DNA from: an uncultured bacterium
Lineage (GTDB): Bacteria > Sysuimicrobiota > Sysuimicrobiia > Sysuimicrobiales > Sysuimicrobiaceae
Direction of reading: 5' to 3'
DNA length: 64,000 nucleotides
Assembly (NCBI GenBank): GCA_938028835.1
Contig: CALIMJ010000006.1
Coordinates: 4,759 to 68,758 of the forward strand
Position numbers and translations under genes: made by a program. Within the stretch, counting starts at the first letter, position 1. Every line of letters begins with the position of its first letter. This document shows, piece by piece, positions 1 through 20,095 of this stretch. Under the pieces are notes generated by a model. That model worked only from the letters and a program-made list of their open reading frames with translations, was not told the DNA's origin and ran no database searches.

Positions 1-324
1 GTCCCCGCGGCCCGCCTCGTACCGGTCCACGGCGTCCGCGATCCCCCGGACCAGCTGGCGCCCCATCTCGTGTTCGGCCAGCATCACCCCGATGGGGCCA
101 CCCTCCCGGGGCACTCCCCGCCGTTCCAGGCACGGGAACAGGCAGCGCTCCTCCTTGCCGTGGTGGCAGCGGTCCACAAAGCCCTGGCTGAAGGCCACCG
201 CCTCCCGCACGTACCCGGGGTCCAGGGTGCCGCCGGACTGCACGGCCCGCAGGCGCGCTTCCAGCCCGTCCAGCACGCCCAGGATTACCTCGTGGTCTCG
301 GACCAGTTCCTCTGTGGACCGCAC
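1..324 (-). CDS. Hemerythrin-like HHE cation-binding domain protein, partial; the 3' part lies beyond the window start
   Basis: Minus-strand translation of 1-324 gives VRSTEELVRDHEVILGVLDGLE...HHGKEERCLFPCLE...VMLAEHEMGRQLV. The H..E/HHG..E/EH spacing is typical of the hemerythrin HHE domain. GTG start at about 324, immediately after the SDR stop. Confidence 0.5.
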   Translation of the reverse strand, partial: MRSTEELVRDHEVILGVLDGLEARLRAVQSGGTLDPGYVREAVAFSQGFVDRCHHGKEERCLFPCLERRGVPREGGPIGVMLAEHEMGRQLVRGIADAVDRYEAGRGD

Positions 325-326
325 GG

Positions 327-1082
327 CTACACCATGGTGAGGCCGCCCGAGACGCTCAGGGTCTGGCCGGTGATGAACGATGCCCGGTCGGAGGCCAGGA
401 ACACCACCGCCTCGGCCACCTCCTCGGGCCGGGCCATGCGGCGCAGGGGGGTGCTGCGGACGATGGCGTCGATGAGCTTCTCGTTGCCCGCCTGGATGAT
501 CTGCTGCAGGAGGGGAGTGTCCGTGATCCCTGGCGCCACCACGTTCACCCGGATGTTGTGGCGCGCCACCTCCCGCGCCAGGGCCTTGCTGAAGGCGATC
601 ACGGCGCCCTTGGCTCCCGAGTAGACGGTCTCGCCTGAAGAGCCCACGCGCCCCGCGTCGGAGCTGATGTTCACCACCACCCCACCCTCCCGCTGCACCA
701 TGTGGGGCAGGACCACGTGACAGGTGTTCAGCACCCCGCGGAAGTTGATGTTGATCACCCGGTCCCACAGGTCCTCGGTGCTCTCCAGGAAGGGCACGAT
801 GCGATCCCAGCCCGCGGCGTTAATGAGGACGTCCACCCGGCCCCAGTGGTCCAGGACCTGCTGCACCGCCTGCGCCACGTGAGCCCGGTTCGTGACGTCC
901 ATCTCCACCGCCAGGGCTTCCCGGTCCTGGCGGCGGATCTCCTCGGCCACCTGCTCGGCGCCCTGCGCGTTGATGTCCGCCACCGCGACCCGCGCACCCC
1001 GGGCGGCCAGGGCCAGGCAGGTCGCCCGGCCGATGCCGCTCGCCCCGCCCGTGACCAGCGCCACGCGATCCTGGAACTCCAT
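327..1082 (-). CDS. Short-chain dehydrogenase/reductase (SDR), 3-oxoacyl-reductase-like
   Basis: TGGASGIGRA Rossmann motif, NAAG motif, and S...YSGAKGAV catalytic tetrad region. 251 aa. Confidence 0.85.
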   Translation of the reverse strand: MEFQDRVALVTGGASGIGRATCLALAARGARVAVADINAQGAEQVAEEIRRQDREALAVEMDVTNRAHVAQAVQQVLDHWGRVDVLINAAGWDRIVPFLESTEDLWDRVININFRGVLNTCHVVLPHMVQREGGVVVNISSDAGRVGSSGETVYSGAKGAVIAFSKALAREVARHNIRVNVVAPGITDTPLLQQIIQAGNEKLIDAIVRSTPLRRMARPEEVAEAVVFLASDRASFITGQTLSVSGGLTMV

Positions 1083-1121
1083 GCTCCCCTCCGCCTCAGG
1101 ATGGTGGGTCCCCGGTCCCGC

Positions 1122-2000
1122 CTACACCTGGCCCGCCCGGGCGGGGACCTCCAGCCGGAACAGTTCGACGGCGTTGTCCCGCACCACCTTCCGGTACACC
1201 TCGGGCTTCAGCCCCAGGGCCCGCAGCTGCTCCAGGCTCTGCTTCCACGGCAGCCCGTTGGTCCCCCACAGGCACCGGTCCTGGCCCAGGCGACTGTTCA
1301 TGAACTGCACCAGCTCCGGCTTCAGGTACTTGGGCATCCACGCGTCGATGCCGATCCACACGGTCTCCCACTTGTAGCAGACGGAGATCAGCTCCTCCAC
1401 CCAGGGCCAGCCGGTGTGGGCGCCCACCACCTTCAGGGTGGGGAAGTCACAAAGGATCCGGTCCAGGTAAATCGGCCGGCCGTGCTCGGAGGGCATCCCC
1501 TCCAGCACGTGGCCCACCTGCATGGAGACGGGGACGTCCAGCTCCACGCACTTGGCATAGAGGGGGTACATCCGGCGGTCGTGCAGGGGGATGTCGAAGC
1601 CGTAGATGTGGACGTAAACCCCCTTGAACCCGTGCTGCGTGACCGCCCGCTCGATCTCCTGCAGGCTCTCCGTAATCCGGTACGGGTTGTAGCCCGCCAG
1701 GCCCACGAACCGTTCGGGGTAGCGGGTCGTGTACTGCAGGACCTCCTCCAGCTGGGTGTCCATATACATCCAGTGGTTCCGGTGGGACCACATCTTGCAC
1801 TGGGTGATGAACACCTTCTCGACCCCGGCCTCGTCCATGGCGGCCAGCATGGCCTCGAAGCTGGGGAAACTGGGCAGGCTGCCCCCCAGGGCCCGCTCCA
1901 TGCGGCACACCAGCTCCCCCTCCTTGGCCTTGTTCCAGCGCGCGATGAACTCCGGGGTAGCCACGTAGTACATGAAGTCGATGGCCCGCACGTCCTCCAT
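1122..2000 (-). CDS. Amidohydrolase-2 family (ACMSD/LigW-like metal-dependent hydrolase/decarboxylase)
   Basis: C-terminal 293 aa of the 605-aa ORF. Starts MEDVRAIDFMYY after a GGAGGTG RBS. Family-like segments include FITQCKMWSHRNHW and GTNGLPW. The upstream 312 codons are GC-rich read-through and are not part of the gene. Confidence 0.75.
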   Translation of the reverse strand: MEDVRAIDFMYYVATPEFIARWNKAKEGELVCRMERALGGSLPSFPSFEAMLAAMDEAGVEKVFITQCKMWSHRNHWMYMDTQLEEVLQYTTRYPERFVGLAGYNPYRITESLQEIERAVTQHGFKGVYVHIYGFDIPLHDRRMYPLYAKCVELDVPVSMQVGHVLEGMPSEHGRPIYLDRILCDFPTLKVVGAHTGWPWVEELISVCYKWETVWIGIDAWMPKYLKPELVQFMNSRLGQDRCLWGTNGLPWKQSLEQLRALGLKPEVYRKVVRDNAVELFRLEVPARAGQV

Positions 2001-2026
2001 CCGCCCACCTCCCTTCCTCGCTCCGT

Positions 2027-2830
2027 TCAGGCGGTGGCCCGCTGCGCGGTACGGCGCAGCCGTTCCTGGGCCAGCTGGGCCGCCCCCAGGGCCGCCGCGT
2101 ACACCCCCTCCTCGTCCGGCGGTACCACGAAGCTCACCCGCAGGTCCTGCTCCAGGCACCGCCGCATCAGGGGGACCCGGGTGAGGCCTCCGGTAAGCAC
2201 GTACCGGGGTTCGCCCCGCAGGCGCTTCACCAGCTGGCCTGCCCGGCCGGCCAGGGCCACGATGGCGCCCGCGCACACGTCCTCCGGGCTGCGGCCGGCC
2301 ACCAGGTGGTTGATCACCTCGCTCTCTGCGAACACCGCGCACACGCTGCTCACCACCGCGGGGTCCTGGGCCGCCTCCGCCAGCCGGGCGATGTCCGCGG
2401 CGGTGTACCCCATGTAGCGCATGGTCTTCTCGAGGAAGGCCCCGCTGCCCGCCGCGCACTTGTCGTTCAGCCGGAAGGCCCGCACCCGGCCCCGCTCGTC
2501 CACCCGGATGGCCTTCACGTTCTGCCCTCCGATGTCCAGGATGGTCCGAGCGTCCGGGTACAGGCGGTGGATGGCCCATGCCTGCGCGGTGAGGTCCGTG
2601 AGCGCGAGGTCCCGGAAGGGGACCATATGCCGACCGTAACCCGTGGCGGCCACGTAGCCCACGTCCTCCCGCCGGAGCCCCGCACTCTCCAGAGCTGCCG
2701 ACAGTCCGCGCTCCGCAGCCCGGGCGAAGTTGAACCCTGTGGGCAGCAGGCTGCGGCCCACCACCTGTCCGTCGTCGCACAGCACCACCTTGGTGTAGGT
2801 AGCGCCCACGTCGATGCCGGCCACCAACAT
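2027..2830 (-). CDS. BadF/BadG/BcrA/BcrD-type ATPase (activase/electron-donor subunit), paralog 1
   Basis: MLVAGIDVGATYTKVV acetate/sugar-kinase-fold N-terminal motif, DIGGQNVKAIRVDERG, and NDKCAAGSGAFLE cluster-helix motif. 267 aa. Confidence 0.85.
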   Translation of the reverse strand: MLVAGIDVGATYTKVVLCDDGQVVGRSLLPTGFNFARAAERGLSAALESAGLRREDVGYVAATGYGRHMVPFRDLALTDLTAQAWAIHRLYPDARTILDIGGQNVKAIRVDERGRVRAFRLNDKCAAGSGAFLEKTMRYMGYTAADIARLAEAAQDPAVVSSVCAVFAESEVINHLVAGRSPEDVCAGAIVALAGRAGQLVKRLRGEPRYVLTGGLTRVPLMRRCLEQDLRVSFVVPPDEEGVYAAALGAAQLAQERLRRTAQRATA

Positions 2831-2832: not shown

Positions 2833-3666
2833 CTACTGCCCTCCCGCGGCCGCGGCCACTTCCGCCCGCTCGCCCAGTAGGACGTGGTCCAGGGCGAACA
2901 GGGCGGCGCCGATGGCCCCGCAGAAGTGGGACTCCTCACTCACGTTCACGGGCACCCCGCTCATCTCCCCGATCAGGTGCACCATGGCCACGTTCCGGGC
3001 CACGCCGCCCGTGAAGGTGAGCTCGGGCTCGATCCCGACCCGCCGGAGCAGCGACAGGCTGCGCGAGGCGATGGAGGCGTGCACCCCCATCAGGATGTCC
3101 TCCACCTTGCGGCCCCTCGCCAGCCAGCCCAGGATCTCCGACTCCGCGAATACCGTGCAGGTGGTGGTAATGGTCACAGGGTTGCGGGCCGTCAAAGCCA
3201 GGGGCCCCAGCTCGCCCAGGGGGATCTCCAGGGCCGCGGAGGCCGCCCCCAGGAACCGGCCGGTGCCCGCAGAGCACTTGTCGTTCATGCAGAAGTCCAG
3301 CACCTCGCCGCCGGGCCCCACCCGGATGGCCTTGGTGTCCTGGCCGCCGATGTCCAGGACCGTGCGGGTGTTGGGGAACAGGAAGCAGGCTCCTCGCGCG
3401 TGGCAGCTGATCTCCGTCACCTGGGTGTCCCCGAACTCCACCTTGAAGCGGCCGTACCCGGTGCCCACGGTGTACTGCACGTCCTCGGCGGACAGCCCCG
3501 CTTCCTGGAGCGCGGCCTCGAAGGCGGCCCGCGCCGCCTCGTTCAACCGCGCGCCCGTGTCCACCAGGGCCCGGCCCAGGATCTCCCGCTCCGGGCTCAG
3601 GATCACCGCCTTGGTCTGGGTGGACCCCACGTCCACCCCCGCCACCACCTTCTTGGCACCCCACAT
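2833..3666 (-). CDS. BadF/BadG/BcrA/BcrD-type ATPase, paralog 2
   Basis: [37 protein letters not shown] and [12 protein letters not shown] motifs. ATG at 3666 lies after a GGAGGTGA RBS. 277 aa. The N-terminal part of the 591-aa ORF was discarded. Confidence 0.85.
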
Positions 3667-3674: not shown

Positions 3675-4973
3675 TCACCTCCCCACTGCAGCCTTGTGCG
3701 CCGCCAGCGCTTCGAAGAAGGCGTCCACGCGGTTCTTGATCTGCGCGTCCGACCACAGCCTCGGGTCCACCAGGTCCGACTGGATGAACAGCCCCGGCAC
3801 GTTCCGCTGCACCCGCATCCACTCCCGCACGTCCGGCAGTCCCGTGCTGGTAGTCCGGCAGCTCTTCACCCCGTGGAAGCAGATGCCGTCCACCTTCCAG
3901 TCCCGCACCACCCGGTCCAGCCACTCCTGCTGGTAGAACATGGCTCCGGTCCAGCCCCAGTAGGTGGCCCGGACCATCTGCTCCGCGAAGCTCTCCAGGG
4001 GCCGGCCCAGGTCGTAGCCGAAGCCCGGCACGAAGCCCCCGCCCGCGAACACCATGTAGGTGCTGTGCACGAACACCCCGCCCCAGGAGCTGAACAGCTC
4101 CACGAACCGGCGGAAGTGGCTGTAGCAGGCGGTCCCCACCAGCACCAGCCGGAACCGCTCGTCCGGCACCGCCGCCATCCCCAGCCGCACCCGCTCCCGC
4201 ATCTCCTCCAGGGCCAGCTCGAAGTACCGGGTGCCCTCCGGGGTCCCCCGGTACAGGTTGGCGATGCCCTGGTAGGTGACCCCCTCCAGGGGCGCGTTGA
4301 AGGGAGCGGGGATGTGCCGGTTCGTGTCGCACACCGCGTGGTACAGCTCCGCCATGCGGTTGGCCTCCCGCAGGTGCTCCCGGAACCGGTCGATGTCGAA
4401 GGACTTCCCGGTGATCCGCTCGCACACCTCGATGAGCTCCCGCAGCTGGCCCAGGACGTAGCGACAGTCGTTCTCGAAGGTCTCCCGGAAGGCCTCCGTG
4501 CCCTCCCGCAACGACTCCCGGCCCCGCCAGCCGGGCAGGTCGAAGGTGAACACCGGACAGCCGTAGTAGTGCTCCCAGAACTCTGCCCACTTGAGGTACG
4601 TGTTGCACACGTTGTTGGTGACCACCAGGGCGGGCCGGGGGACCCGTCCGTAGGGGTGCTCCCCCTCCTTCAGCTGCACCCCCACGTCCGCCTTCACGTA
4701 CCCGCAGATGTCCGGGGAGAAGCCGTAGTCCTCCGCCAGCTGGATGTACGCCTGCGACTGGCCCCGGATGGCGGTCTGCAGGGAGGTGATCTCCGGCGCG
4801 TTGATGACGAAGTCAAAGGTCAGCAGCAGCTCGGAAAGCGGCGCCATCACGAACACGTAGGCGGTGGGGTGTCCGGTCTGGGCCGCCTCCGTCATCCGCT
4901 GCCACCACAGCTCCATCAGCCGCCGGCCCTCGCGCCGGCTGACCCCCAGGATCTCCTGCGCCGATGTACTCAC
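3675..4973 (-). CDS. 2-hydroxyacyl-CoA dehydratase / benzoyl-CoA reductase BcrB(BadE)-like subunit
   Basis: HgdB/BcrB family-like sequence (..CGYVKADVG.., ..[15 protein letters not shown].., ..[11 protein letters not shown]..). Start set at the GTG (VSTSAQEIL) about 10 nt after the upstream stop. An alternative ATG (MELWW) lies at about 4916. Confidence 0.7.
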
Positions 4974-4984: not shown

Positions 4985-6142
4985 TCACGCGAACTGGAAC
5001 AGCAAAGACTCCGCGAAGGTCTCCACTTCCATGCCCACCTGCTCGAACACCGTCATGGTCTCCTCGAACTCCATCACCAGGTGCGGGATCCCCGCACCAT
5101 CCAGGGCCCGGCTGTAGTGCACCTGCTCCTCCAGCCCCGGTTCGCACATCTTGGCCGCGGCCACGATGGCGGCCTCCGCCCCCGCCTCCCGGATGCGCCG
5201 CAGGAGCATCTCCGCCTTGGGCTTGCGGGGGTCCCGCTGCACCGGGCTGTAGCTGCTGCGGTTGAGGTAGCTGTCCGCCAGGTTCCGCCAGGGGTCACCG
5301 TCCAGGGGGACGTCCTCCGTGATCCACCGCAGCCCGATCATGAGGTCGTCGTCCACGATGTAGCAGGCGTTCTGGATCACCGCCAGCATGTCCAAGGGCG
5401 GCTGCTCGCAGAACCCGCCCTCGAACACCACCCGGATGCGGTCCTGCTTCTTGGCGGGCCGCTGCGGCAGGAGCTCCAGCACCCGTCGCAGCAGAACGTT
5501 GTGCTCCTCGCGGGGCATCAGCCCCGCGGAGCGCACCAGCAGGTAGCTCTCCACCGCGCTGAGCAGCCACGGGCTCTCCCGCTTGATCCGGTACACCTCC
5601 CGCAGCAGCCTGCGGTTCTCGTTGAACAGGGCGATGCTGGCCCGCAGGGCGTCCTCGGTGATGGGGCGGCCGCTCAGTTCCTCGATCACGCGGCCGATCC
5701 GGCGGTACTCCCCCACCAGGTAGTCCACCGCGTGGGCGCTGCTGGCGTTGTGGGGGTGGTAGAGGGTCTCCACCCGCATCTGGGGGAAGCTGCGCACCCA
5801 CACCCCGCAGCCGTTGCGGGCGGCGTCGCAGATGTTGGGCACCACCATGAGGCTCAGGAAGTCTAGCCGCCCCGACAGCGCCAGCTCCAGGGAGCTGCGG
5901 ACGATGGAGCACACGAAGGCGGCGATGCGGGCGTCCGCCTGCCGCACCTGGACCGTTCCGCCCGCGCCCGCGATCTTCACGGGCAGCAGGCCTGCCGCGT
6001 GGGCCACCTCCTCGGGGAAGAACACCTGGAAGTGCCCCACCACTTTGCCCTGGGGATTCGCCTCCAGCCACCGCCGCACCGCGGGAAACGACGGATCCTC
6101 CACCAGGGCCCTCAGGTCGTCGAAGATCCGCTCCAGCTCCAT
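4985..6142 (-). CDS. 2-hydroxyacyl-CoA dehydratase / benzoyl-CoA reductase BcrC(BadD)-like subunit
   Basis: 385 aa, HGD-D family-like (..VVPNICDAARNGCGVW.., ..AAKMCEPGLEE..). ATG lies 8 nt after an AGAGGGG RBS. Confidence 0.7.
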   Translation of the reverse strand: MELERIFDDLRALVEDPSFPAVRRWLEANPQGKVVGHFQVFFPEEVAHAAGLLPVKIAGAGGTVQVRQADARIAAFVCSIVRSSLELALSGRLDFLSLMVVPNICDAARNGCGVWVRSFPQMRVETLYHPHNASSAHAVDYLVGEYRRIGRVIEELSGRPITEDALRASIALFNENRRLLREVYRIKRESPWLLSAVESYLLVRSAGLMPREEHNVLLRRVLELLPQRPAKKQDRIRVVFEGGFCEQPPLDMLAVIQNACYIVDDDLMIGLRWITEDVPLDGDPWRNLADSYLNRSSYSPVQRDPRKPKAEMLLRRIREAGAEAAIVAAAKMCEPGLEEQVHYSRALDGAGIPHLVMEFEETMTVFEQVGMEVETFAESLLFQFA

Positions 6143-6955: not shown

Positions 6956-7723
6956 CTACCGGTGTTGCCAGGCGGGCTTGCGTTTTTCGAGAAACGCCCT
7001 CAGGCCCTCGTGAGCGTCCTCGGTTCGCATGAGCTCTTGCGCGTACACGTGTTCGACCTCCTGGAGCTCCTGGTAGAATACCCGCCGGAAGGACCCCAGG
7101 GCCGCGCGCTTGGCCAGGCGCAGTACCGCCGCGCTGTGGGCGCACAGCTGCTCGACGCGCCGGCGCACCGCCTGCTCGAGATCCTCCGCGGCCACCACGT
7201 CCGTGACCAGGCCCAGTTCGCGGGCCTGCCCTGCGGTCAGGACTTCCCCCGTGAGCACCGGGACCACCGCCTGCTTTCCCATCAGGGGAAGGAAAGCCGC
7301 CGCCGCCACGGGCGGGAACACTCCCACCCGAACCTCGGGCTGTCCGAAGGTCGCGCTTTCAGAGGCCACCACCACGTCGCACAGGGCAATCAGCTCGCAC
7401 CCTCCCCCCAGCGCCGCCCCGCCCACCCCGGCTACCGTGGGCACGTCCGAGTCCACGAGGGTACGGCACAAGGCGTGAAAGGCCTCCAGCATCTCGTGAA
7501 CCTTCTCCGCGGTGTGCTCCGCCACGTCCACCCCCGCGCAGAAGGATCGCCCCTCCGCGGTCAGGACCACAGCCCGCGCGGTGGGGTCCGCGAACGCCTC
7601 CCGGAGAATCCCCTCCAGCTCCCGCATCATCGCGATGGTGAGCACGTTGTGGGGCGGGCGGTTCAGGGTGACCCACCACGCCCCCTCCTCCCGCCGGACC
7701 CGTACCGCCTGATCCTGGTTCAC
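6956..7723 (-). CDS. Enoyl-CoA hydratase/isomerase (crotonase) family protein
   Basis: [15 protein letters not shown] and [25 protein letters not shown] crotonase signatures. GTG start overlaps the ACAD stop (GTGA). Confidence 0.8.
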
Positions 7724-12357: not shown

Positions 12358-14766
12358 CTATGCGGGCTGCGCCGCCTCCTCCCAGCTCTGGGGGCGGGGG
12401 ACCCGCTCCGGGGGCGGGAAGGAGAACGGCGGCACCTTGGTCGGGCCCACGCGGCCCGTCCGGCCCTTGCGCTGTTCCTCCAAAGCCTTGAGCACCCTCT
12501 CGGGCGTGGCGGGAACTTCGTCCACCCGCACCTTCAGGGCGTCCGCGATGGCGTTGAGGATGGCGGGCACCACGCACAGCAAAGGACCCTGGCCCACCTC
12601 CTTAGCGCTGAAGGGGGCCCGGGGTTCCTCCGTCTCGACCAGGAAGGTGATCACCTCCGGCATCTCGTACACGGTGGGCACCTTGTAGTCCAGCCAGGAC
12701 GGACCCCGGTGCAGCTCCTTGCGGAAGGCCTGCTCCTCCATCAGGGCCTCGCCCAGGGCCATGTGCACGCTGCCCTCCACCTGGCCCTCCACCAGCACCG
12801 GGTTGAGGGCCCGGCCGATGTCGTGGGCCACCCATACCCGCTCCACCTTCACCTCTCCGGTCTCGGGGTCCGCCTGCACCTCCGCCACGCACGCGGAGAA
12901 GGTGTAGGCGGGCGAGGGCCCCACCCCGGAGCCTTTGTACGTCCCCAGCTTCTGCGGGGGCCGGTAGCTGCCGGAGGTGGCCAGGCACCCGAACCTGGCC
13001 TCGGCCCACTGTGCCGCCTGGGCGAAAGAGCCACCGACTTGCGGGTTCGCCTCATCGAAGATTCGCCGGGACCGCGCCACCAGCCGGCTCCGGGGCACCT
13101 GCAGGCGTTCGGCCACCGCCTCGAACAGCAGGTCCCGCACCCGACAGGCGGCCTCATACGCCGCGTTGCCCACCATGAGCGTCACCCGGCTGCTGTAGCT
13201 GCCGAGGTCGATGGGAGTGAGGTCCGTGTCGGAGGTCACCAGGCTTACGTCCTGGGGCTGCAGTCCCAAAACCTCCGCCACGATGGTGGCCACCGCGGTG
13301 GCCGAGCCCTGCCCGATCTCCGTGGCCATGGTGTACACGGTCACCCCGCCCGAGCGGTCCACCCGCAGGTGAACCTCGGAGTGGGGCATGTCGCTGTAGT
13401 AGATGGAGCCGCCCGCGCCCGTGAGGTAGGCGCTGCACGCAAACCCCAGCCCCCGCCCGTAGGGCAGCCGGCCCCGACGCTCGTGCCACCCGCTGGCCTC
13501 CACCACCTTCTCGATGCACGCCCGCAGCCCGTTGCTGGTGATCTCCAGCCAGTTCACCGTGAGCTCGTTGGGCCCCGTGAGGTTGCGCAGCCGCAGCTCC
13601 ACGGGGTCCAGGCCCAGCTCCTCGCTCAGCTTGTCCAGGTGCACTTCCAGGGCGCAGCGGGCCTGCGGGGTGCCGTGGCCGCGCTTGGGGCCGCACGGCG
13701 GCTTGTTGGTGAACACCCGGACGGCCTGGAACCGGTAGTGGGGAATCCGGTAGGTGACCGGCTGCTGCGTGCCGGCGTAGAGCATGGTGGCGGGGCCGAA
13801 GGAGCAGTACGCCCCACCGTCCAGATAGGCCTCCACGTGCATGGCGGTGATGCGGCCGTCCCGCTTCACCCCCGTCCGGATCCGCAGCAGCTCCGGGTGC
13901 CGGCCCCGGTGCGCGTAGAACACCTCCTCCCTCGTGAGGGTGATCTTCACCGGCCGGCCCGTGAGCATGCTGAGCTTGGCAGCACACACCTCGTGGTGGA
14001 AGATGTCCAGCTTGCCGCCGAACCCCCCGCCTACTGCGGGTACCACCACCCGCACCTGGTGCTCCTCCAGGCCCAGGGCCTTCGCCAGTCCCCGGTGCAG
14101 GTAGTGGGGGCCCTGGTGGGACGTCCACAGGGTGAGCTTCCGCGCCCCGGGGTCCCACCAGGCCAGGGCGCTGTGCGGCTCCAGGGGCGCGTGGGTGCTG
14201 CCCTCGTAGAAGAACAGGTCCTCCCGCACGTGGTCGGCTTCCGCGAAACCCACCTCCACGTCGCCGAACTCCAACGAGGCCAGCCGGTGGACGTTGCCAA
14301 ACGGCCCGTACTCGTGGATGCGGGGCTCCGGGTTCCGCAGGGCCTCCTCCAGGTCCATGCGGGCCGGCAGCGGTTCGTACTCCACCTCCACCAGCCGGGC
14401 GGCCTCCTCCGCGGTGTACGGATCCACCGCCGCCAGGGCGGCCACCGGCTCGCCCACGTAGCGCACCTTGTCCACCGCCAGCGCGGTCTCGTCCTGCCCC
14501 ACGGGGAACACGCTGTAGCGGACCGGGACGTCCCGGCCCGTGATGGCCGCCACCACCCCGGGAAGCTGCAGGGCCCGCTCCAGCCTGACCGACACCAGCT
14601 TGGCGTGCGCGTGCGTGCTGCGCACCAGCTTGCCGAACAGCATGCCCGGAAGGCTGAGGTCGTCGGTGTACTGGGCGCGGCCGGAGACCTTGGCCCAGCC
14701 GTCCACCCGCGGCAGGCGCTGGCCCACCACGTTCCACACGCGTTCCCGCTCCTTCAGGACCCGCAT
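12358..14766 (-). CDS. Xanthine-oxidase-family molybdopterin-binding large subunit (HcrA/CoxL-like)
   Basis: 802 aa starting MRVLKERERVWNVVGQ. Ald_Xan_dh family-like throughout. The N-terminal 122 codons of the 924-aa ORF are rejected. Confidence 0.85.
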   Translation of the reverse strand: MRVLKERERVWNVVGQRLPRVDGWAKVSGRAQYTDDLSLPGMLFGKLVRSTHAHAKLVSVRLERALQLPGVVAAITGRDVPVRYSVFPVGQDETALAVDKVRYVGEPVAALAAVDPYTAEEAARLVEVEYEPLPARMDLEEALRNPEPRIHEYGPFGNVHRLASLEFGDVEVGFAEADHVREDLFFYEGSTHAPLEPHSALAWWDPGARKLTLWTSHQGPHYLHRGLAKALGLEEHQVRVVVPAVGGGFGGKLDIFHHEVCAAKLSMLTGRPVKITLTREEVFYAHRGRHPELLRIRTGVKRDGRITAMHVEAYLDGGAYCSFGPATMLYAGTQQPVTYRIPHYRFQAVRVFTNKPPCGPKRGHGTPQARCALEVHLDKLSEELGLDPVELRLRNLTGPNELTVNWLEITSNGLRACIEKVVEASGWHERRGRLPYGRGLGFACSAYLTGAGGSIYYSDMPHSEVHLRVDRSGGVTVYTMATEIGQGSATAVATIVAEVLGLQPQDVSLVTSDTDLTPIDLGSYSSRVTLMVGNAAYEAACRVRDLLFEAVAERLQVPRSRLVARSRRIFDEANPQVGGSFAQAAQWAEARFGCLATSGSYRPPQKLGTYKGSGVGPSPAYTFSACVAEVQADPETGEVKVERVWVAHDIGRALNPVLVEGQVEGSVHMALGEALMEEQAFRKELHRGPSWLDYKVPTVYEMPEVITFLVETEEPRAPFSAKEVGQGPLLCVVPAILNAIADALKVRVDEVPATPERVLKALEEQRKGRTGRVGPTKVPPFSFPPPERVPRPQSWEEAAQPA

Positions 14767-15251
14767 CCCGATGGCCTCCCCGTCTCGCGAAGCCGCCGCG
14801 CCGCGGCCTGCACCGCCTCCAGGATCTTCACGTAGCCGGTGCAACGGCAGAACACCCCCGCCACCGCCTCCCGCACCTGCTCGCCCGACGGCTCGGGGAC
14901 ACGGTCCAGCAGCGCCTTGGTGACCAGCACCATGGCGGGGGTACAGTAGCCACACTGCAGGGCGCCACTGTCCACGAAGGCCTGTTGCACCGGGTGCAGC
15001 TGACCGTCCGTAGCAAGCCCCTCCACGGTGGTGACCTCGTGGCCTTCGAGCTCTTGGGCCAGGAGCAGGCAGGACAGCGCAGGCTCCCCGTCCACCAGTA
15101 CCGTGCAGATCCCGCACTCCCCCAGCTCGCACCCGTGTTTGGTCCCCACTAGCCCCAGGTCCTCCCGCAGCACCTCCAGGAGCGTGCGGTGGGGCGGCAC
15201 CAGCACCCGGTGCTCCTGCCCGTTCACCCTGAGCCGGACCACACGCTCCAT
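14754..15251 (-). CDS. (2Fe-2S)-binding small subunit (HcrC/CoxS-like)
   Basis: CELGECGICTV ferredoxin-type motif plus CGYCTPAMV...CRCTGY second cluster motif. 165 aa. Overlaps the large-subunit start by 13 nt. Confidence 0.9.
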   Translation of the reverse strand: MERVVRLRVNGQEHRVLVPPHRTLLEVLREDLGLVGTKHGCELGECGICTVLVDGEPALSCLLLAQELEGHEVTTVEGLATDGQLHPVQQAFVDSGALQCGYCTPAMVLVTKALLDRVPEPSGEQVREAVAGVFCRCTGYVKILEAVQAAARRLRETGRPSGCGS

Positions 15252-15337: not shown

Positions 15338-16741
15338 CTAGGTCCTACGTCCGACGGAGGGCAGGAAGTCCTCCAGGCGCACCCGGTCCCAGCCCATGGG
15401 CTTCAACCGCTGAAACGGCTTTCGCGCGTCCTCCCCCGCGCACAGGGGCGGCTTGGTGGCGTCGATGAGGAGCTTGCCGCCCACCCGGTTCCAGTACGGG
15501 CCGCCGGGTGGTATCAGCTCCCGCGCGGACGGGTCCATGGGGTGCACCCGCACGCCGGGGATCACCACTACGTCTGTCTCGGGGTTGCAGCGGGTATTGA
15601 CGGCCCACAGGACCTCCCAGGGCTGGTAGGGGTCCACGTCCTCGTCCACCGCGATGGCGACCTTGGGGTGTAGCACGGGACTGCTGACCACGCCCAGGAG
15701 CACCTGCTTGGCCTCACCCCAGAAGCGCGGCGTCATCTGGACCACCACCCCGAAGATTCCGGGCAGCACCACCACGTTGTGCAGCTCCACGTGGCCCGCA
15801 ATGCTCCGGATGTGGTTGTAGATGGCCGCCGCCAGCGGCACCTTGTGGAACACACAGCCCTCGACCTCCGACCCGTTCTGCACCGCCTTGTAGATGGCGT
15901 CCTGCCGCAGGGTGATGCAGTCCACCTCCACCACGGGGTTATGCCCCATCCCCGCCACGTAGTAGTCGTGGAACTCGGAAAACGGTCCTTCCGGCTCCCG
16001 CACGTGGGGCAGGACCTTCCCCTCCAGCACGATCTCCGCGTCCGCGGGGACTTCCAGGTCGTTGGTCTCGCACCGGACCACCTGGACCGGCTCGCCCAGC
16101 AAGCCGCCCGCCAGCTCCAGCTCGTCCATCTCGAAGGGCCCGCTGGTGGCAGCGGCCATGTAGTGCAGCGGGTGGTGGCCGATGTAGATGGCCACGGGCA
16201 TCGCCTCGCCCGCGGCCTCGTACGCGTCGTAGATGCGTCGGGTGTGCCGTGGGACCATGAGGATCCCCAGCTTGCGGGGGCCCTTCACCTGCAGGCGGTG
16301 GAAAGCGACGTTGCGCTTGCCCGTGGCCGGATCGCGGCAGACTACCAGACCCGAGGCGATGTAGGGCGGTTCCTCGCTCCCGTTGACGTGCACGGGCAGC
16401 CGGGTCACGTCCGCCTCCGTGCCCTTCCACACCACCTCCTTCACCGGGCCGGAGGCCACCCGCTGCGTAGGGACCCGCCGCTGGGACCGCTCGGCCGCGG
16501 TGGGGGTCAGGCGCTGCAGGGTAGTGCCGTACGCCAGCGCCGCGTGACGCAGGTTCGCGGGCGCCATGCCCAGGCTGCGCCATCCCGGGTAGCCCACCAG
16601 GTTCTCGAACAGCAGGGCTTTCTCCCGGGATTGGTACAGCAGAGCTCCCATCTCCGTGCGGGGATCCACCGGGCTGCGCACCCGCACCAGTTCCCCGACG
16701 TCTTCCAGCTGGGCGATCCACGTGCGCATGTCCGCCGGCAT
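15338..16741 (-). CDS. UbiD-family (de)carboxylase (4-hydroxybenzoate decarboxylase / phenylphosphate carboxylase-like)
   Basis: 467 aa, UbiD-like throughout, with the C-terminal LLIDATKP motif. Confidence 0.9.
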   Translation of the reverse strand: MPADMRTWIAQLEDVGELVRVRSPVDPRTEMGALLYQSREKALLFENLVGYPGWRSLGMAPANLRHAALAYGTTLQRLTPTAAERSQRRVPTQRVASGPVKEVVWKGTEADVTRLPVHVNGSEEPPYIASGLVVCRDPATGKRNVAFHRLQVKGPRKLGILMVPRHTRRIYDAYEAAGEAMPVAIYIGHHPLHYMAAATSGPFEMDELELAGGLLGEPVQVVRCETNDLEVPADAEIVLEGKVLPHVREPEGPFSEFHDYYVAGMGHNPVVEVDCITLRQDAIYKAVQNGSEVEGCVFHKVPLAAAIYNHIRSIAGHVELHNVVVLPGIFGVVVQMTPRFWGEAKQVLLGVVSSPVLHPKVAIAVDEDVDPYQPWEVLWAVNTRCNPETDVVVIPGVRVHPMDPSARELIPPGGPYWNRVGGKLLIDATKPPLCAGEDARKPFQRLKPMGWDRVRLEDFLPSVGRRT

Positions 16742-16748: not shown

Positions 16749-16886
16749 CTACCGCAGGACCTCCGCCCACTTGGCCAGCACCCGCTCCCGCACCTCGGGG
16801 CTGGAGGCGGCCACGGGCGGGAACCGGTCCTTCCACTCGAAGGGACGGGTGGCGTCGATCACCGCGCGGGAGTTGAACCGTTCTGC
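16749..16886 (-). pseudogene. C-terminal fragment of a second UbiD-family gene, truncated at the insertion-sequence boundary
   Basis: Translation VAERFNSRAVIDATRPFEWKDRFPPVAASSPEVRERVLAKWAEVLR* matches UbiD C-termini (IDAT motif). There is no start codon. The frame is closed by TGA exactly where TnpB-derived sequence begins. Confidence 0.5.
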
Positions 16887-16899
16887 AACTCATGGTCAT

Positions 16900-17427
16900 C
16901 TATTTCCACAGTGGGATAGATAACCGGTTGCTTCCTGCCTCATCGACCCATAGCTCGTAGACCAGCTGCACCGTTCCGCCGCCAGAGGGATCTCCGCAGG
17001 CGTCACTTCCCGGGGAACTCCCGGTAGGGCTGCTTAGGACAGCCAGGCCATATTCTCGCAGGTTCAGCGCGGCGTTCAGGTCCCGGTCTAGTTCTAGACC
17101 GCACGCCGCACACCGGAAAACCCGGCGGGAAGGGTGTAGCCTGGGCCCCACCATCCCGCACCGCCAGCACCGCCTGGTGGACGGGAAGCCCCCAGATGCC
17201 ACGATGAGCTGCGATCCGTACCAGTGGGCCTAGTACTCCAGCATCCGCCGGAAGCTAGCCCAGCTCACATCGGCTGCACGTCGGGACAGCCTCCCCCCGG
17301 CCAGCCCCCGCACGTTCAGGTCTTCCACCACGATGACTGGCTTGGTTCTCACCAGCCATGTAGTGACCTTGTGCAGGAAGTCCCGGCGGATGCAGCGAAC
17401 CCGGCGGTGCAGCCGTGCCAGCCGCAA
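16900..17427 (-). mobile_element. tnpB: Degenerate IS605/IS1341-type TnpB (OrfB) remnant: frameshifted C-terminal half only
   Basis: Fragment 17230-17427 encodes RRDFLHKVTTWLVRTKPVIVVEDLNVRG...FRRMLEY (RuvC-II region). Fragment 16900-17202 encodes RRVFRCAACGLELDRDLNAALNL (zinc finger plus RuvC-III). The two frames differ. The N-terminal approximately 200 aa are absent. AT-richer end sequences flank the remnant. Confidence 0.7.
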
Positions 17428-17488
17428 GGCTGCCGCCAGGCGGTGATGTAGCTGATGCCCTCGAGACGAGCTCAGTCTGAAAGTTTCA

Positions 17489-18589
17489 TCAGTAATAAAC
17501 GATCACAAAGACGGGGCCAGCTGTCACCCCCCGCGCCTCCAACTGCGGGTCCTCCCGGATGTCCCGCGGGTCGGCCACCGGGTAGCCCAGGATCCCCCGG
17601 CGCAGGGCCTCGTGGGTGAACTCCGCCTTGGTCCGCTCCGCCAGGAACGCCGCGATGGCCTCCTCCAGCCGATCGATCTCCTCCTGGGTCGCGGTGACCA
17701 CGTCGAAGGCCTCCCAGTCGCGGCCCCGCAACGCCTCCGGCAACGCCCCACACTCCTCCATCCAGCGCACCAGGGCCGCGTTGGAGTGGCGGCCCGCCTC
17801 CCCGGAGTACAGGATGAAGTTGATGTACCCGTCCCGGCACCGGTACACGGCCCGCACCCGCGCGCCGTGCACGTTGCGGCCCACCATGGCGTTGCCGGCC
17901 CGGCGCAGGTCCCTCCCGAACAGGCTGTAGTACGCGGGCGCGTTGGCCAGGGCGCTCAGCAGGCTGGCCTGAACGGACACGTCCACCAGCTGGCCGCGTC
18001 CGGTCCGCTGGCGGTACAGGTGCGCTACCAGGGCACCCGCGGCCGCGTACAGGCTTCCCCACAGGGGCGCCTGCGGCAACGACACCCGCAACGGCGAGCC
18101 GTCAGGCCTTCCGACCAGCTGCATGAGCCCGCTGGCCGCCATCACCACGAGGTCCGGACCTCGCCACCCGCTGCGGGGACCCGTGCGCCCGAAGGGCGTG
18201 AGGGACACCCACACCACCCGCGGGTTGCTCTCCCGCAGCTGCGGGTAGCCGACACCCAGCTCCTCCAGGAAGCCCGGCGGGTAGGACTCCACCACGAAGT
18301 CCGCGCGCGCCACGAGGCGCGCGAAAAGCTCCCGCCCCCGGGGATCCTCCAACGCCAGGGTGATGCCCCGCTTGTTGGCGTTGTACGCAAGCCACGGGAG
18401 GCTGCGCTCCGGGTGGGGTTCGTCACGGTAAAAAGGACCCCGCCACCGGCCCGGGTCCCCGCCCGGGGGCTCCACCTTCACCACGTCCGCGCCCAGGTCT
18501 CCCAGCAGCCGGCCGCAGAACCAGCCGGCCTCGTCCGTGAGGTCCAGCACCCGGTAGCTGGCCAGCAGGCTGGAGGCTTCCCTCACCAC
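17489..18589 (-). CDS. Family III CoA-transferase (CaiB/BaiF/Frc-like), possibly 3'-altered
   Basis: N-terminal YRVLDLTDEAGWFCGRLLGDLGADVVKVEPPGG is the family III signature. Approximately 366 aa from the GTG, which is short for this family. The last codons (VFVIVYY*) are AT-rich and adjoin the IS remnant. Confidence 0.7.
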   Translation of the reverse strand: MVREASSLLASYRVLDLTDEAGWFCGRLLGDLGADVVKVEPPGGDPGRWRGPFYRDEPHPERSLPWLAYNANKRGITLALEDPRGRELFARLVARADFVVESYPPGFLEELGVGYPQLRESNPRVVWVSLTPFGRTGPRSGWRGPDLVVMAASGLMQLVGRPDGSPLRVSLPQAPLWGSLYAAAGALVAHLYRQRTGRGQLVDVSVQASLLSALANAPAYYSLFGRDLRRAGNAMVGRNVHGARVRAVYRCRDGYINFILYSGEAGRHSNAALVRWMEECGALPEALRGRDWEAFDVVTATQEEIDRLEEAIAAFLAERTKAEFTHEALRRGILGYPVADPRDIREDPQLEARGVTAGPVFVIVYY

Positions 18590-19338
18590 GGAGATCCTAC
18601 CTTCCTCCGCCGGGACAGCCTCTGCACGCGCTCCGCGAAGTACGCCAGGTGCTCCCGCATGAGGGACCGGGCGCGCTCTGAGTCTCGGGCCTGCACCGCG
18701 TCCAGGATGGCCTGGTGATCCTCTACCGCTCGCGCGGCCATGGCGTCGTCGGGCAGCAGGCGCGCCAGCACCTCGTGGAACAGGGCACGGAAGGAGGCCA
18801 GGGCGGCCACCAGCACGGGGTTCCCGGAGGCCTCCGCCAGCGCCGTGTGGAACCCCACGCTGTGGGGGATGAAGTAAGGGTCGCCGCGCTGCCGCCCCGC
18901 ACGGGCCTGCTCCACCGCCGCGCGCATGGCCTCCAGGTCCCTGGGCCGCGCCCGCTGTGCGGCCAGGGCGGCCACCTCCGGCTCCAGGAGCAGCCGGGCC
19001 TCCGCCAGCGCCCGCAGCGACGCCCGGTTCACCCGCAGGAGGTTCGCCAGCGACTCCGTGACGTGCCGCGGCTCGGGCACCGACACGAACACCCCACCCC
19101 TGGCACCGACGCGGATCCGCACGAAGCCCTCGGACTCCAGGATCCGCAGGGCGTCGCGGATGGTCACCCGGCTGAGCCCGAACTGCCGGGCCAGCTCCTT
19201 CTCCGACGGCAGCCGCTGCCCGCTGCGGAGCTGGCCCCTCAGGACCATCTCCTTGATGTGCCGGACCACCGCGTCCGAGGCGCGCACGGGGCGGGGCGGT
19301 TCGACCGGAGTGCGGACGAGGGGTTCCGCTTGCGCCAT
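18583..19338 (-). CDS. GntR-family transcriptional regulator (FadR-type C-terminal domain)
   Basis: LPSEKELARQFGLSRVTIRDALRILESEGFV winged HTH. Start taken at the internal ATG (MAQAEP) rather than the 5' extension. No obvious RBS, so possibly leaderless. Confidence 0.7.
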   Translation of the reverse strand: MAQAEPLVRTPVEPPRPVRASDAVVRHIKEMVLRGQLRSGQRLPSEKELARQFGLSRVTIRDALRILESEGFVRIRVGARGGVFVSVPEPRHVTESLANLLRVNRASLRALAEARLLLEPEVAALAAQRARPRDLEAMRAAVEQARAGRQRGDPYFIPHSVGFHTALAEASGNPVLVAALASFRALFHEVLARLLPDDAMAARAVEDHQAILDAVQARDSERARSLMREHLAYFAERVQRLSRRRKVGSPW

Positions 19339-19473
19339 GGCAAAGGTAATATCGTTCAGATCTCCACCGCCCACCATCGGTCGCGCAGCCGACTTCCTCG
19401 GGTGCGGGCCCGATGTCGTTGACACCCCAGGGCACAGCGCCCATCATGGGGCCGACTGCTGCAGGAGGGTGGG

Positions 19474-20067
19474 ATGGAGGGCGAGGGAAGCCGGCGGCTG
19501 GTGGTGGCCATCACGGGGGCCAGCGGGGCCATCCGGGGGATCCGGCTGCTGGAGGCGGCACGGGAGCTGGGGCTGGAGAACCACCTGGTGGTAAGCGAAT
19601 GGGCGGAGCGTACCATCCCGCACGAGACGGACTACCGCGTGGAGGACGTCCTCGGGCTCGCCAGCGTGGTGCACCGCCGCGACGACCAGGCCGCGGTCAT
19701 CTCCAGCGGCTCGTTTCCCACCCGGGGGATGGCGGTGGTACCGTGCAGCATGAAGACCCTGGCAGCCATGGCCTGCGGGTTCGCGGACGACCTCATCCAC
19801 CGGGCTGCGGACGTCACCCTGAAGGAACGGCGCAGGCTGGTCCTGGTGCCGCGCGAGGCACCCCTGAGCAGCATCCACCTAAAAAATATGCTGAAGCTGT
19901 CCAACCTGGGCGCGGTGATCCTGCCGCCGGTGCCCGCCTTCTACACCCACCCGCGCAGTCTGGACGAGGTGGTGGACCACGTGGTGGCGCGGGTCCTGGA
20001 CCAGTTCGGGTGGAGCTGGAGCCGCGCCCGGCGCTGGGACGGGCGCATGCAACGGAGCCCGGACTGA
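19474..20067 (+). CDS. ubiX: Flavin prenyltransferase UbiX (prFMN synthase)
   Basis: LVVAITGASGA flavoprotein motif, PCSMKTLAAMA, ILPPVPAFY. 197 aa. Confidence 0.9.
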   Translation: MEGEGSRRLVVAITGASGAIRGIRLLEAARELGLENHLVVSEWAERTIPHETDYRVEDVLGLASVVHRRDDQAAVISSGSFPTRGMAVVPCSMKTLAAMACGFADDLIHRAADVTLKERRRLVLVPREAPLSSIHLKNMLKLSNLGAVILPPVPAFYTHPRSLDEVVDHVVARVLDQFGWSWSRARRWDGRMQRSPD

Positions 20068-20095
20068 GGCTCGCGCGCGGATTGTCCGTCCACCC

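Follow-up and report, generated by a model that had tools for sequence, protein, structure and literature searches.

A candidate anaerobic aryl-CoA degradation cluster of Candidatus Sysuimicrobiota with a relative of class I benzoyl-CoA reductases and an amidohydrolase-2 partner

We analysed a stretch of 64,000 nucleotides (the window) from contig CALIMJ010000006.1 (assembly GCA_938028835.1, positions 4,759 to 68,758 of the forward strand), which belongs to an uncultured bacterium of Candidatus (Ca.) Sysuimicrobiota and carries a run of 16 co-directional minus-strand genes at its left end. We consider it probable that positions 1–16741 form one operon-like unit encoding an oxygen-independent, coenzyme A (CoA)-dependent route, which would turn an aromatic acid, either para-hydroxylated or unsubstituted, into aliphatic CoA esters. 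The run is unbroken from 16741 down to the window edge at position 1, and its intergenic gaps range from −13 to 86 bp. An earlier interpretation made from the letters and their open reading frames (the sequence-only reading) had described the same 16 tightly spaced genes as resembling a complete set for anaerobic 4-hydroxybenzoate and benzoate catabolism, and Pfam recovers every family that it named, in the order stated. Overall, that interpretation is partly supported: it was right in outline, wrong on taxonomy, and overstated on completeness and rarity.

The four-gene reductase

Four adjacent genes, 2–11 bp apart, encode two distinct ATPases of the BcrAD_BadFG family and two HGD-D proteins (Pfam). 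The subunits were assigned by bit scores against all solved structures and the NCBIfam models. Each subunit has as its top match a different subunit of the 3-methylbenzoyl-CoA reductase (MBR) MbdONQP. The gamma subunit matches MbdN (9g87_B, 423 bits; HadC 168, BzdN 125), beta matches MbdO (9g87_A, 392 bits; HadB 90, BzdO 89) with 45.5% identity over 415 residues, alpha matches MbdQ (9gai_D, 375 bits; HadI 230, HgdC 217) and delta matches MbdP (9gai_C, 221 bits; HadI 155), i.e. 1.4- to 4.3-fold above the Had and Hgd scores. The NCBIfam ranking agrees, with BcrC (314 bits) above HadC (212 bits) and BcrB (215 bits) above HadB (111 bits).

In the solved BzdNO structure, three Cys residues are ligands of the catalytic aqua-[4Fe-4S] cluster and Tyr97 binds the thioester (PMC11971306). 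Cys90, Cys123 and Cys372 of the window beta subunit align with the BzdO ligands Cys95, Cys128 and Cys380 and are invariant in 72 homologues, and Tyr92 corresponds to Tyr97. The gamma subunit has five invariant Cys. The reductase genes of Thauera are arranged as bcrCBAD, and the corresponding order, gamma–beta–alpha–delta, is found in all full-module loci among 80 related genome loci (individual loci and contigs are given below by L numbers). By these comparisons, the four-gene module is a relative of MBR and of the Thauera-type class I benzoyl-CoA reductase (BCR), in agreement with the Bcr-like ring-reduction module of the sequence-only reading; the scores do not place it among the dehydratases.

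The resemblance to MbdONQP (PDB 9g87 and 9gai) and Thauera BcrCBAD thus covers the four subunits, their one-to-one best matches and the gene order, and extends in MbdO to the cluster cysteines and the active-site motifs (a motif starting PEI, NNxCNT and VKSCRT). The differences are also clear. Identity in the catalytic subunit is only ~45%, the scores lie below the NCBIfam BcrA–D cut-offs, and the window alpha subunit is short, at 277 aa compared with the 432-position BcrA model. The window module has no adjoining genes for ferredoxin or 2-oxoglutarate:ferredoxin oxidoreductase, and it resides in a thermophilic Sysuimicrobiota metagenome-assembled genome (MAG), not in a denitrifying betaproteobacterium. 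An amidohydrolase-2 (Amidohydro_2) gene and a short-chain dehydrogenase/reductase (SDR) gene follow downstream, unlike in the mbd cluster, which presumably carries MbdW/X/Y-type genes instead.

The molybdenum enzyme

Upstream of the ligase gene, three genes that overlap or lie 10 bp apart encode, in this order, a small 2×[2Fe-2S] subunit, a large molybdopterin subunit and a medium FAD subunit. Against solved structures, the large subunit matches 4-hydroxybenzoyl-CoA reductase (4-HBCR; 1rm6_A) with 605 bits, and CoxL follows at 309 bits; among NCBIfam models, HcrA (TIGR03194) scores 830 bits and XdhA, the next, 525 bits. The FAD subunit matches 1rm6_B with 188 bits, and the flavoproteins of other Mo-hydroxylases do not exceed 93 bits. 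It also contains an insertion of ~48 aa in the FAD_binding_5 domain, in which four Cys align with Cys122, Cys138, Cys146 and Cys155 of 1rm6_B. We take these four positions to be [4Fe-4S] cluster ligands, and the four loop Cys of the 4-HBCR FAD subunit reportedly bind an extra [4Fe-4S] cluster that enables the reductive direction. Judged by its scores and by retention of the four-Cys loop, the Mo enzyme is of the 4-HBCR type, as the sequence-only reading had proposed for reductive dehydroxylation, and not a CO or xanthine dehydrogenase. By similarity scores, neither of the two placements that this reading had named as refuting it (the reductase among dehydratases, the Mo enzyme among CO or xanthine dehydrogenases) is borne out.

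Compared with HcrCAB of Thauera aromatica (PDB 1rm6 and 1sb3), the window enzyme shares the three subunits, the four-Cys loop, an alpha subunit whose top structural match scores about twice the next, and a location beside genes for a CoA ligase and a BCR. It differs in a loop that is 6 aa longer and in scores under the equivalog cut-offs. Its relatives with 63–73% identity in other phyla lie next to PaaABCD-like oxygenase genes, which suggests that the aryl-CoA range of the clade may be broader or different. Adjoining Hcr-like and BCR genes are also found in MAGs of Gaiellales/Actinomycetota and Acidimicrobiaceae (L015, L016 and L019).

Hcr-like Mo enzymes beside PaaABCD-type genes were observed in HR24 and other MAGs (L006, 9457–16041; L008, 6747–12370, the latter with the large subunit only). 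This arrangement may be a sign that an aerobic CoA-dependent pathway is supplied by reductive dehydroxylation, and the Hcr-like clade as a whole may serve several aryl-CoA routes.

Ligase, crotonases, acyl-CoA dehydrogenase and SDR

Between the Mo enzyme and the reductase lie genes for an acyl/aryl-CoA ligase, a crotonase (ECH_b), an acyl-CoA dehydrogenase (ACAD) and a second crotonase (ECH_a). The best NCBIfam match of the ligase is PRK06187 (367 bits, cut-off 476). ECH_a has as its top NCBIfam match cyclohexa-1,5-diene-1-carbonyl-CoA hydratase (Dch; TIGR03189, 172 bits, cut-off 292), and homologues with 38–52% identity are found directly upstream of the gamma gene in many phyla. ECH_b exceeds the cut-off of NF006107 (460 bits, cut-off 330), a model that names no specific function. 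The ACAD matches, all below cut-off, are acryloyl-CoA reductase (251 bits), cyclohexane-1-carbonyl-CoA dehydrogenase (227 bits) and glutaryl-CoA dehydrogenase (213 bits); a pairing of ACAD with ECH_b is also seen in L013 and L051. The SDR downstream of the reductase has BadH as its top NCBIfam match (TIGR03206, 301 bits, cut-off 431), and its orthologues (55–69% identity) adjoin BCR genes in many phyla. We propose from these matches that it is a hydroxy-cyclohex(en)ecarbonyl-CoA dehydrogenase.

The sequence-only reading had assigned modified beta-oxidation and ring hydrolysis to these genes. The first part is consistent with an SDR closest to BadH and one crotonase closest to Dch. For the second part, the 64-kb window contains no Oah/BadI-type ring hydrolase and no Had of the medium-chain dehydrogenase/reductase (MDR) type. 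BadI and Oah are absent from the best 25 NCBIfam matches of either window crotonase, and a tblastn search of the window with the BadI/Oah-like protein of L013/L033 gave only 29% identity. Compared with BadK-BadH-BadI of Rhodopseudomonas palustris and Dch-Had-Oah of Thauera, the cluster has an SDR and a crotonase that are BadH-like and Dch-like by best match, the ACAD and the second crotonase. Its chemistry would likewise proceed by hydration, oxidation and ring opening through hydrolysis, but it lacks a BadI/MenB- or Oah/BamA-class ring hydrolase and an MDR-type Had.

An extra SDR gene (35–38% identity to the BadH-like SDR) lies between the ligase and ECH_b genes in L094 (14989–15771), L111 and L123, and is absent from the window, a further difference in gene content at strain level.

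The amidohydrolase-2 protein and lower-pathway variants

The amidohydrolase-2 protein has no NCBIfam match, and its only sizeable relative in the PDB is the uncharacterised protein BB4693 (3irs, 87 bits). It is, however, 77–81% identical to hundreds of metagenome proteins from distant lineages. Its gene adjoins those for an SDR orthologue and all four reductase subunits in L034, L069, L083, L091, L092 and L093. In the three contexts sampled at L091–L093, the SDR and reductase adjacency was seen each time; L092 has the order Dch-like crotonase, SDR, amidohydrolase, and in L091 and L093 a six-gene unit (Amidohydro_2, SDR and four reductase genes) stands with no crotonase or ligase gene nearby. 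In L091/L093 (1–5700), this unit lies beside genes for a large molybdopterin oxidoreductase, for Fer4_11, Nitrate_red_del and EB_dh proteins (the last resembling the gamma subunit of ethylbenzene dehydrogenase) and for a sigma-54 activator.

Of 84 BCR loci, 10 hold an orthologue of the amidohydrolase and 23 a BadI/Oah-like crotonase, and none holds both. We hypothesize from this pattern that the amidohydrolase-2 protein supplies the ring-opening (or hydration) step. A literature search returned no relevant paper linking amidohydrolases to benzoyl-CoA reductase clusters. The AlphaFold2 model of the protein (mean predicted local distance difference test score 87) has BB4693 (3irs) as its nearest fold, followed by LigW and LigJ, and also matches dihydroxybenzoate decarboxylases and a LigI-like protein (4i6k); the N-terminal HxH motif is absent from the family. 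A broader proposal, which we regard as tentative and on balance rather doubtful, is that amidohydrolase-2, SDR and MBR-type reductase form a conserved unit across Sysuimicrobiota, Acidobacteriota, Methylomirabilota-like and other lineages, in which a TIM-barrel enzyme and not a crotonase opens or hydrates the ring. If so, a non-orthologous enzyme would have replaced Oah/BadI, and the lower benzoyl-CoA pathway would have a third variant.

Other occupants of the slot between delta and SDR were seen in Dormibacterota, Actinomycetota and an Armatimonadota-labelled MAG, in which a crotonase of 325–332 aa is accompanied by two subunits of the PF01144 CoA-transferase fold (L013, 7042–9683; L033, 14300–16901; L019, 14163–15799). 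The best families of the slot crotonase in L013/L033 are BadI (200 bits), MenB (197 bits) and Oah (192 bits). The PF01144 pair has no NCBIfam match and may represent IpdAB-like ring hydrolases, which would be another lower-pathway variant.

UbiD4, UbiX and a strain-specific deletion

The sequence-only reading had placed UbiX near UbiD and assigned to UbiD a carboxylation or decarboxylation step for phenol or 4-hydroxybenzoate. Both genes are present; UbiX, however, is on the plus strand, 2.7 kb from the UbiD gene (UbiD4), and a GntR/FCD regulator, a truncated CoA-transferase and a TnpB scar, none of which had been listed, lie between them. Nor does the assigned step agree with the relatives of UbiD4. 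In the PDB, UbiD4 is closest to HmfF of P. thermopropionicum (6h6x, 241 bits), followed by Fdc1/UbiD (148 bits), the vanillate-type 7ae4 (145 bits) and phthaloyl-CoA decarboxylase (64 bits), and it is far below the NCBIfam cut-offs for VdcC and phenylphosphate carboxylase. UbiD4 is thus not assigned as a 4-hydroxybenzoate or phenol (de)carboxylase, since its best solved relative is HmfF and it is, in sister strains, the last gene of a module with four UbiDs and two CoA-transferases. Nor does it keep three residues that mark the HmfF-type 2,5-furandicarboxylate (FDCA) decarboxylases. In the alignment to 6h6x, His296, Arg304 and Arg331 of HmfF (P. thermopropionicum numbering), which reportedly hold the second carboxylate in this branch, are replaced in UbiD4 by Gly, Leu and Ile.

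The sister loci reveal the original layout. Upstream of hcrC they carry a divergent UbiX gene, GntR, two CoA_transf_3 genes (417 and 403 aa) and UbiD1-UbiD2-PNPOx-UbiD3-UbiD4, where UbiD1 (519 aa) is divergent and UbiD2 and UbiD3 have 495 and 482 aa. UbiD2 and UbiD3 resemble phenylphosphate-carboxylase beta (266–281 bits, below cut-off). This peripheral module is intact, with the GntR position kept, in L094, L096, L097, L099, L111 and L123, of which L111 is a near-identical strain (97% identity); the position of the divergent UbiX is also kept in sister loci.

Using blastn, the window is colinear with L094 down to 17528 and again from 16879, and the 6.3 kb between these points in L094 are replaced by ~650 bp. 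On the right, window position 16879 equals L094 position 7886, inside the UbiD3 gene (L094 6565–8013). On the left, CoA-transferase homology ends at window position 17528, equal to L094 position 1574 of a gene at 516–1769, which leaves 366 aa compared with 417 aa in the sisters; the truncated protein is probably inactive. A stem-loop followed by a T-rich stretch lies exactly at the left junction (17530–17513), and the scar contains a TnpB pseudogene, whose in-frame stop, Zn finger and DRDLNAALN motif were read directly from the sequence. As judged from this colinearity, an insertion sequence (IS)-associated deletion has removed 6.3 kb of the peripheral module in this strain. The strain has lost three UbiDs, the second CoA-transferase subunit and the PNPOx-like gene, and retains UbiD4 as the sole UbiD of the module, with a 3′ stub of UbiD3 upstream.

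A tblastn survey of lower-GC metagenome contigs, made with the cluster proteins alone, showed UbiD4 orthologues (71–74% identity) on at least 15 other contigs with no Hcr or BCR within reach; one contig (L132) has UbiD4 with UbiD1 and both CoA-transferases and no Hcr or BCR. Because its orthologues mostly occur without Hcr or BCR, and given the layout of the sister module, UbiD4 appears to belong to the peripheral decarboxylase module and not to Hcr. The anaerobic o-phthalate module combines two CoA-transferase subunits, a divergent UbiD and UbiX (PMC13040137). The sisters are alike in their two family-III CoA-transferases, divergent 519-aa UbiD and UbiX, whereas UbiD4 has only 64 bits to phthaloyl-CoA decarboxylase and the CoA-transferases and three UbiDs of the window are deleted or truncated. 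Based on this analogy, the intact sister module probably decarboxylates aromatic di- or hydroxy-acids into this funnel, following a phthalate-like logic.

A distinct association of UbiD and Mo-hydroxylase was observed on soil contigs (L154, L158, L159, L162 and L167), in which two UbiD paralogues (31% and 47% identity to UbiD2 and UbiD3) are followed by two large subunits of the xanthine dehydrogenase (XDH) family and FAD and 2Fe-2S subunits. Their Mo-hydroxylase proteins have 33–55% identity to the Hcr proteins.

Proposed pathway and alternative readings

The gene set fits the overall logic of the sequence-only reading, i.e. CoA activation, reductive dehydroxylation, ring reduction and modified beta-oxidation. 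We infer the substrate of the cluster from the kinds of enzyme encoded, and propose the following route. The ligase would form an aryl-CoA thioester. The Mo/FAD/Fe-S enzyme would then reductively remove a para-hydroxyl group, with low-potential electrons passing through the extra [4Fe-4S] cluster. In the gamma–beta–alpha–delta reductase, ATP hydrolysis by alpha–delta would drive electrons to the [4Fe-4S] cluster of beta, and a benzoyl-CoA-type ring would be reduced to a cyclic dienoyl-CoA. Going by their best matches, ECH_a would hydrate the diene and the BadH-like SDR would oxidise the resulting alcohol. The amidohydrolase-2 protein, in the slot held elsewhere by a BadI/Oah-class crotonase, may open the ring, as its gene neighbourhood suggests. 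ECH_b and ACAD may serve beta-oxidation of the product or the entry of alicyclic acids. The PAS-LuxR protein probably regulates the unit, and the hemerythrin-like protein probably senses or buffers O2 for oxygen-labile enzymes. UbiD4 and UbiX are the remnant of a separate module that comprised GntR, two CoA-transferase subunits, four UbiDs and a PNPOx-like protein.

Several observations weigh against this route. None of the curated cut-offs is reached by the BCR equivalog models (TIGR02259–02263 and TIGR03190–03192), with 314 of 421 bits for BcrC (TIGR02263), 215 of 487 for BcrB, 210 of 578 for BcrA, 139 of 313 for BcrD and 197 of 380 for BzdQ. The Hcr models also stay below, at 830 of 995 bits (TIGR03194), 299 of 405 (TIGR03195) and 178 of 258 (TIGR03193), the last of which is not the top match of the small 2×[2Fe-2S] subunit. 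Because all equivalog models (BcrA–D, BzdNOQ, HcrABC, BadH and Dch) lie below their curated cut-offs, the reductase, Hcr, BadH-like and Dch-like proteins are treated as relatives, with no certified orthologues among them. BzdO His131, a proposed proton relay, is replaced by Tyr in the window beta subunit and by Phe in MbdO; as it is replaced in both, the change belongs to the MBR-like branch. Outside the phylum, the nearest Hcr-like relatives (63–73% identity; HR24, Blastocatellia and a Bipolaricaulota-labelled MAG) lie beside PaaABCD-type oxygenase genes with no BCR, and the substrate of the Mo enzyme may therefore not be 4-hydroxybenzoyl-CoA. An AMP-binding ligase fits the CoA activation step of the sequence-only reading, but this one falls outside the benzoate/4-hydroxybenzoate-CoA ligase family (TIGR02262, 230 bits, cut-off 375). 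The ring-opening role of amidohydrolase-2 rests on neighbourhood statistics, as its exclusion of BadI/Oah-like crotonases has a hypergeometric p of ~0.03 that is uncorrected for relatedness of the loci, and its fold matches are at superfamily level and include decarboxylases and hydratases as well as hydrolases. Finally, neither a ferredoxin nor a system to regenerate it (2-oxoglutarate:ferredoxin oxidoreductase) is encoded in the 64-kb window, which also has no thiolase or transporter gene. Given the missing ferredoxin system and thiolase, and the lack of an MDR-type Had and an Oah/BadI ring hydrolase, the description of the set as complete is unsupported.

Three alternatives were considered. 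In the first, the reductase acts on another CoA ester (3-methyl-, 3-hydroxy- or halobenzoyl-CoA, or a non-benzenoid ring) and forms with the SDR and amidohydrolase-2 a self-contained non-classical pathway. This fits with MBR and not BcrCBAD being the nearest characterised enzyme, with BcrB and BcrC scores below cut-off, and it is consistent with the recurrence of the six-gene unit in L091 and L093 and the unusual conservation of the amidohydrolase across phyla. However, the active-site motifs of beta are near-identical to those of MbdO, in most phyla a Dch-like crotonase gene sits directly beside the module, and in the window the module has upstream of it an Hcr-type enzyme, which is known to yield benzoyl-CoA; we therefore judge this reading unlikely.

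In the second, the cluster encodes a heteroaromatic-acid route, e.g. for furan-2,5-dicarboxylate/2-furoate (Trudgill-type), in which UbiD4/UbiX would decarboxylate the diacid, the ligase would form furoyl-CoA, the Mo enzyme would hydroxylate it in the manner of a furoyl-CoA dehydrogenase, amidohydrolase-2 would serve as lactonase and the substrate of the reductase would be some later product. Among solved structures, UbiD4 is indeed nearest to the FDCA decarboxylase HmfF (other relatives at most 148 bits), the hmfFG/hmfABCDE genes are said to comprise UbiD and UbiX together with a Mo hydroxylase of three subunits, a CoA ligase and a crotonase, N-heterocycle clusters with Mo-hydroxylase, UbiD, UbiX and amidohydrolase occur on Ensifer plasmids, and Amidohydro_2 members include lactonases (the LigI-like fold match 4i6k). 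On the other side, the FAD subunit has the four-Cys [4Fe-4S] loop of the reductive 4-HBCR, whereas the Ensifer relative has a short flavoprotein of 287 aa and a large subunit of only 38% identity, and a plasmid search for HmfA/HcrA relatives returned only XDH-family proteins of 37–38% identity in N-heterocycle-type clusters. The three HmfF positions, with the roles we take them to have, are not kept in UbiD4, whose orthologues mostly lack Hcr and BCR and which in the sisters belongs to the four-UbiD module; moreover, Hcr and BCR co-localise in three other lineages with no UbiD4 in reach. In comparison with HmfF/HmfG (PDB 6h6v and 6h6x), the likeness is thus one of nearest relative, and we consider the heteroaromatic route very improbable.

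The third, a 2-hydroxyacyl-CoA dehydratase with its activator from amino-acid fermentation, hardly deserves credence: the HGD-D and BcrAD_BadFG families are shared and HadB, HadC and HadI are detectable at 90–230 bits, but such systems generally have a single activator gene, whereas the module has two different ATPase genes in place of one homodimeric activator, all four proteins score higher to MbdONQP, BcrC and BcrB outrank HadC and HadB, and the neighbours are aromatic-CoA enzymes.

Host phylum and distribution of the reductase type

The sequence-only reading had described the genome as Bacillota-like and the ATP-dependent class I reductase as unusual in it. A scan of a species-representative genome collection with the gamma subunit gave 558 matched stretches, and neighbourhoods were taken from 80 loci. 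The closest genomes are Ca. Tepidifontimicrobium thermophilum (98% amino acid identity), an uncultured relative (93%) and Ca. Sysuimicrobium calidum (92%), all of which are hot-spring MAGs of Ca. Sysuimicrobiota (CSP1-3), kingdom Bacillati. The host is thus assigned to this phylum, as a thermophilic member of Ca. Tepidifontimicrobium. The 80 loci span Gemmatimonadota, Dormibacterota, Chloroflexota, Acidobacteriota, Actinomycetota and others, and the reductase type is present in MAGs of at least 10 phyla. Earlier work had reported class I BCRs from single-cell genomes of Chloroflexi and from the archaeon Ferroglobus (PMC5736913).

The phylum description presents CSP1-3 as likely facultative anaerobes (PMC11604079), and facultative anaerobes typically use class I BCRs (PMC11971306). 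An ATP-dependent class I reductase is therefore expected in CSP1-3, and together with the many relatives and the earlier reports this argues against calling it unusual. The phylum papers (PMC11604079 and the PNAS paper on CSP1-3) portray CSP1-3 as chemoautotrophic or carbon-cycling generalists, and the words aromatic, benzoyl and benzoate are absent from both. New here are the phylum of the host, a lower pathway that departs from the canonical one and has a conserved amidohydrolase-2 partner, and the strain-level decay of the peripheral module.

Layout and composition of the window

Genes were called by third-position GC framing, as raw open reading frame lists are useless at the 69–74% G+C found across the window. 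The features of the cluster and its flank are listed in Table 1. A scan for terminator-like sites found none on the minus strand within the 16-gene run, although the promoter and terminator scan itself performed at chance level, and an Rfam search of the window found no RNA family. The GC content (0.69–0.72) and GC skew of the cluster match those of the flanking housekeeping genes, and a compositional or horizontally transferred island was rejected; because the GC is no different from the flanks, 'island' is a figure of speech only.

Table 1. Positions in the window of the cluster genes, the remains of the peripheral module and the adjoining genes
Feature	Position	Strand	Support
Hemerythrin-like protein, N-terminal 108 aa, cut by window edge	1..324	-	PF01814 50.9 bits
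BadH-like SDR	327..1082	-	adh_short 223 bits
Amidohydrolase-2 (TIM-barrel) protein	1122..2000	-	PF04909 117 bits
BCR delta-type ATPase subunit (MbdP/BcrD-like)	2027..2830	-	PF01869 173 bits
BCR alpha-type ATPase subunit (MbdQ-like; short form, 277 aa)	2833..3666	-	PF01869 225 bits
BCR beta-type catalytic subunit (MbdO/BcrB-like)	3675..4973	-	HGD-D 211 bits
BCR gamma-type subunit (MbdN/BcrC-like)	4985..6142	-	HGD-D 236 bits
PAS-LuxR (GerE) transcription regulator	6217..6939	-	PAS 47 bits, GerE 74 bits
Crotonase ECH_a (Dch-like)	6956..7723	-	ECH_1 170 bits
Acyl-CoA dehydrogenase (ACAD)	7720..8901	-	ACAD N, M, C domains
Crotonase ECH_b (PRK08258 family)	8904..9713	-	ECH_1 166 bits
Acyl/aryl-CoA ligase	9736..11283	-	AMP-binding 290 bits
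4-HBCR beta-type FAD subunit, 333 aa	11346..12347	-	FAD_binding_5/CO_deh_flav_C
4-HBCR alpha-type molybdopterin subunit	12358..14766	-	Ald_Xan_dh_C/MoCoBD
4-HBCR gamma-type 2×[2Fe-2S] subunit	14754..15251	-	Fer2 + Fer2_2
UbiD-family (prenylated FMN) decarboxylase UbiD4	15338..16741	-	UbiD N, core, C domains
Leftover 3′ end of deleted UbiD3 paralogue	16770..16879	-	blastn colinearity with L094 and sequence reading
Deletion scar with TnpB (IS200/605- or IS607-type) C-terminal pseudogene	16880..17527	-	PF07282 44 bits; NF038280, NF040570
Family-III CoA-transferase, 3′-truncated (366 aa)	17489..18589	-	PF02515 253 bits
GntR/FCD regulator heading peripheral module	18583..19377	-	GntR + FCD
UbiX flavin prenyltransferase, divergent from GntR	19474..20067	+	PF02441 152 bits; TIGR00421 260 bits, above cut-off 109
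DUF92 integral membrane protein	20096..20884	+	PF01940; 28 bp downstream of UbiX

Three metagenome contigs carry identical copies of the cluster. On an otherwise identical European Nucleotide Archive contig (L001, 1–805), gene calling splits UbiD4 into two genes of 335 and 132 aa; the cause is either a frameshift in the assembly or a true break of the gene in that population. The PAS-LuxR regulator keeps its position in the sister genomes L010–L012, L094, L096 and L111. The full hemerythrin-like gene encodes 168–180 aa on contigs L001/L002, and homologues (44–60% identity) are encoded downstream of the BCR clusters of L013, L056 and L073. It is conceivable that the DUF92 protein is tied to the supply of prenyl phosphate for UbiX.

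The rest of the window is core chromosome, with inosine monophosphate dehydrogenase, two GGDEF proteins and a purine operon at 20.9–39.4 kb, and further genes for tyrosyl-tRNA synthetase, MutS2, PolX, phenylalanyl-tRNA synthetase, IF3 and Mla proteins. The two GGDEF-type signalling proteins (873–888 aa) are encoded between the dehydrogenase and the purine operon (22395–26263, plus strand), and one of them has GAF, PAS, GGDEF and EAL domains.

Implications

As predicted from its genes, the cluster is a real, well-organised anaerobic aryl-CoA catabolic unit composed of known kinds of enzyme, and it assigns a capacity for anaerobic aromatic-acid degradation to Ca. Sysuimicrobiota/CSP1-3. MBR-type class I BCRs are common in uncultured soil and hot-spring phyla, which has a bearing on how the turnover of aromatics under anoxic conditions is estimated. 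As the UbiD/CoA-transferase module and its IS-mediated loss show, calls of a complete pathway from one MAG can differ among near-identical strains. The amidohydrolase-2 protein offers a concrete and cheap biochemical target and, if it is true that it opens the ring, marker surveys with bamA/oah would miss such organisms.

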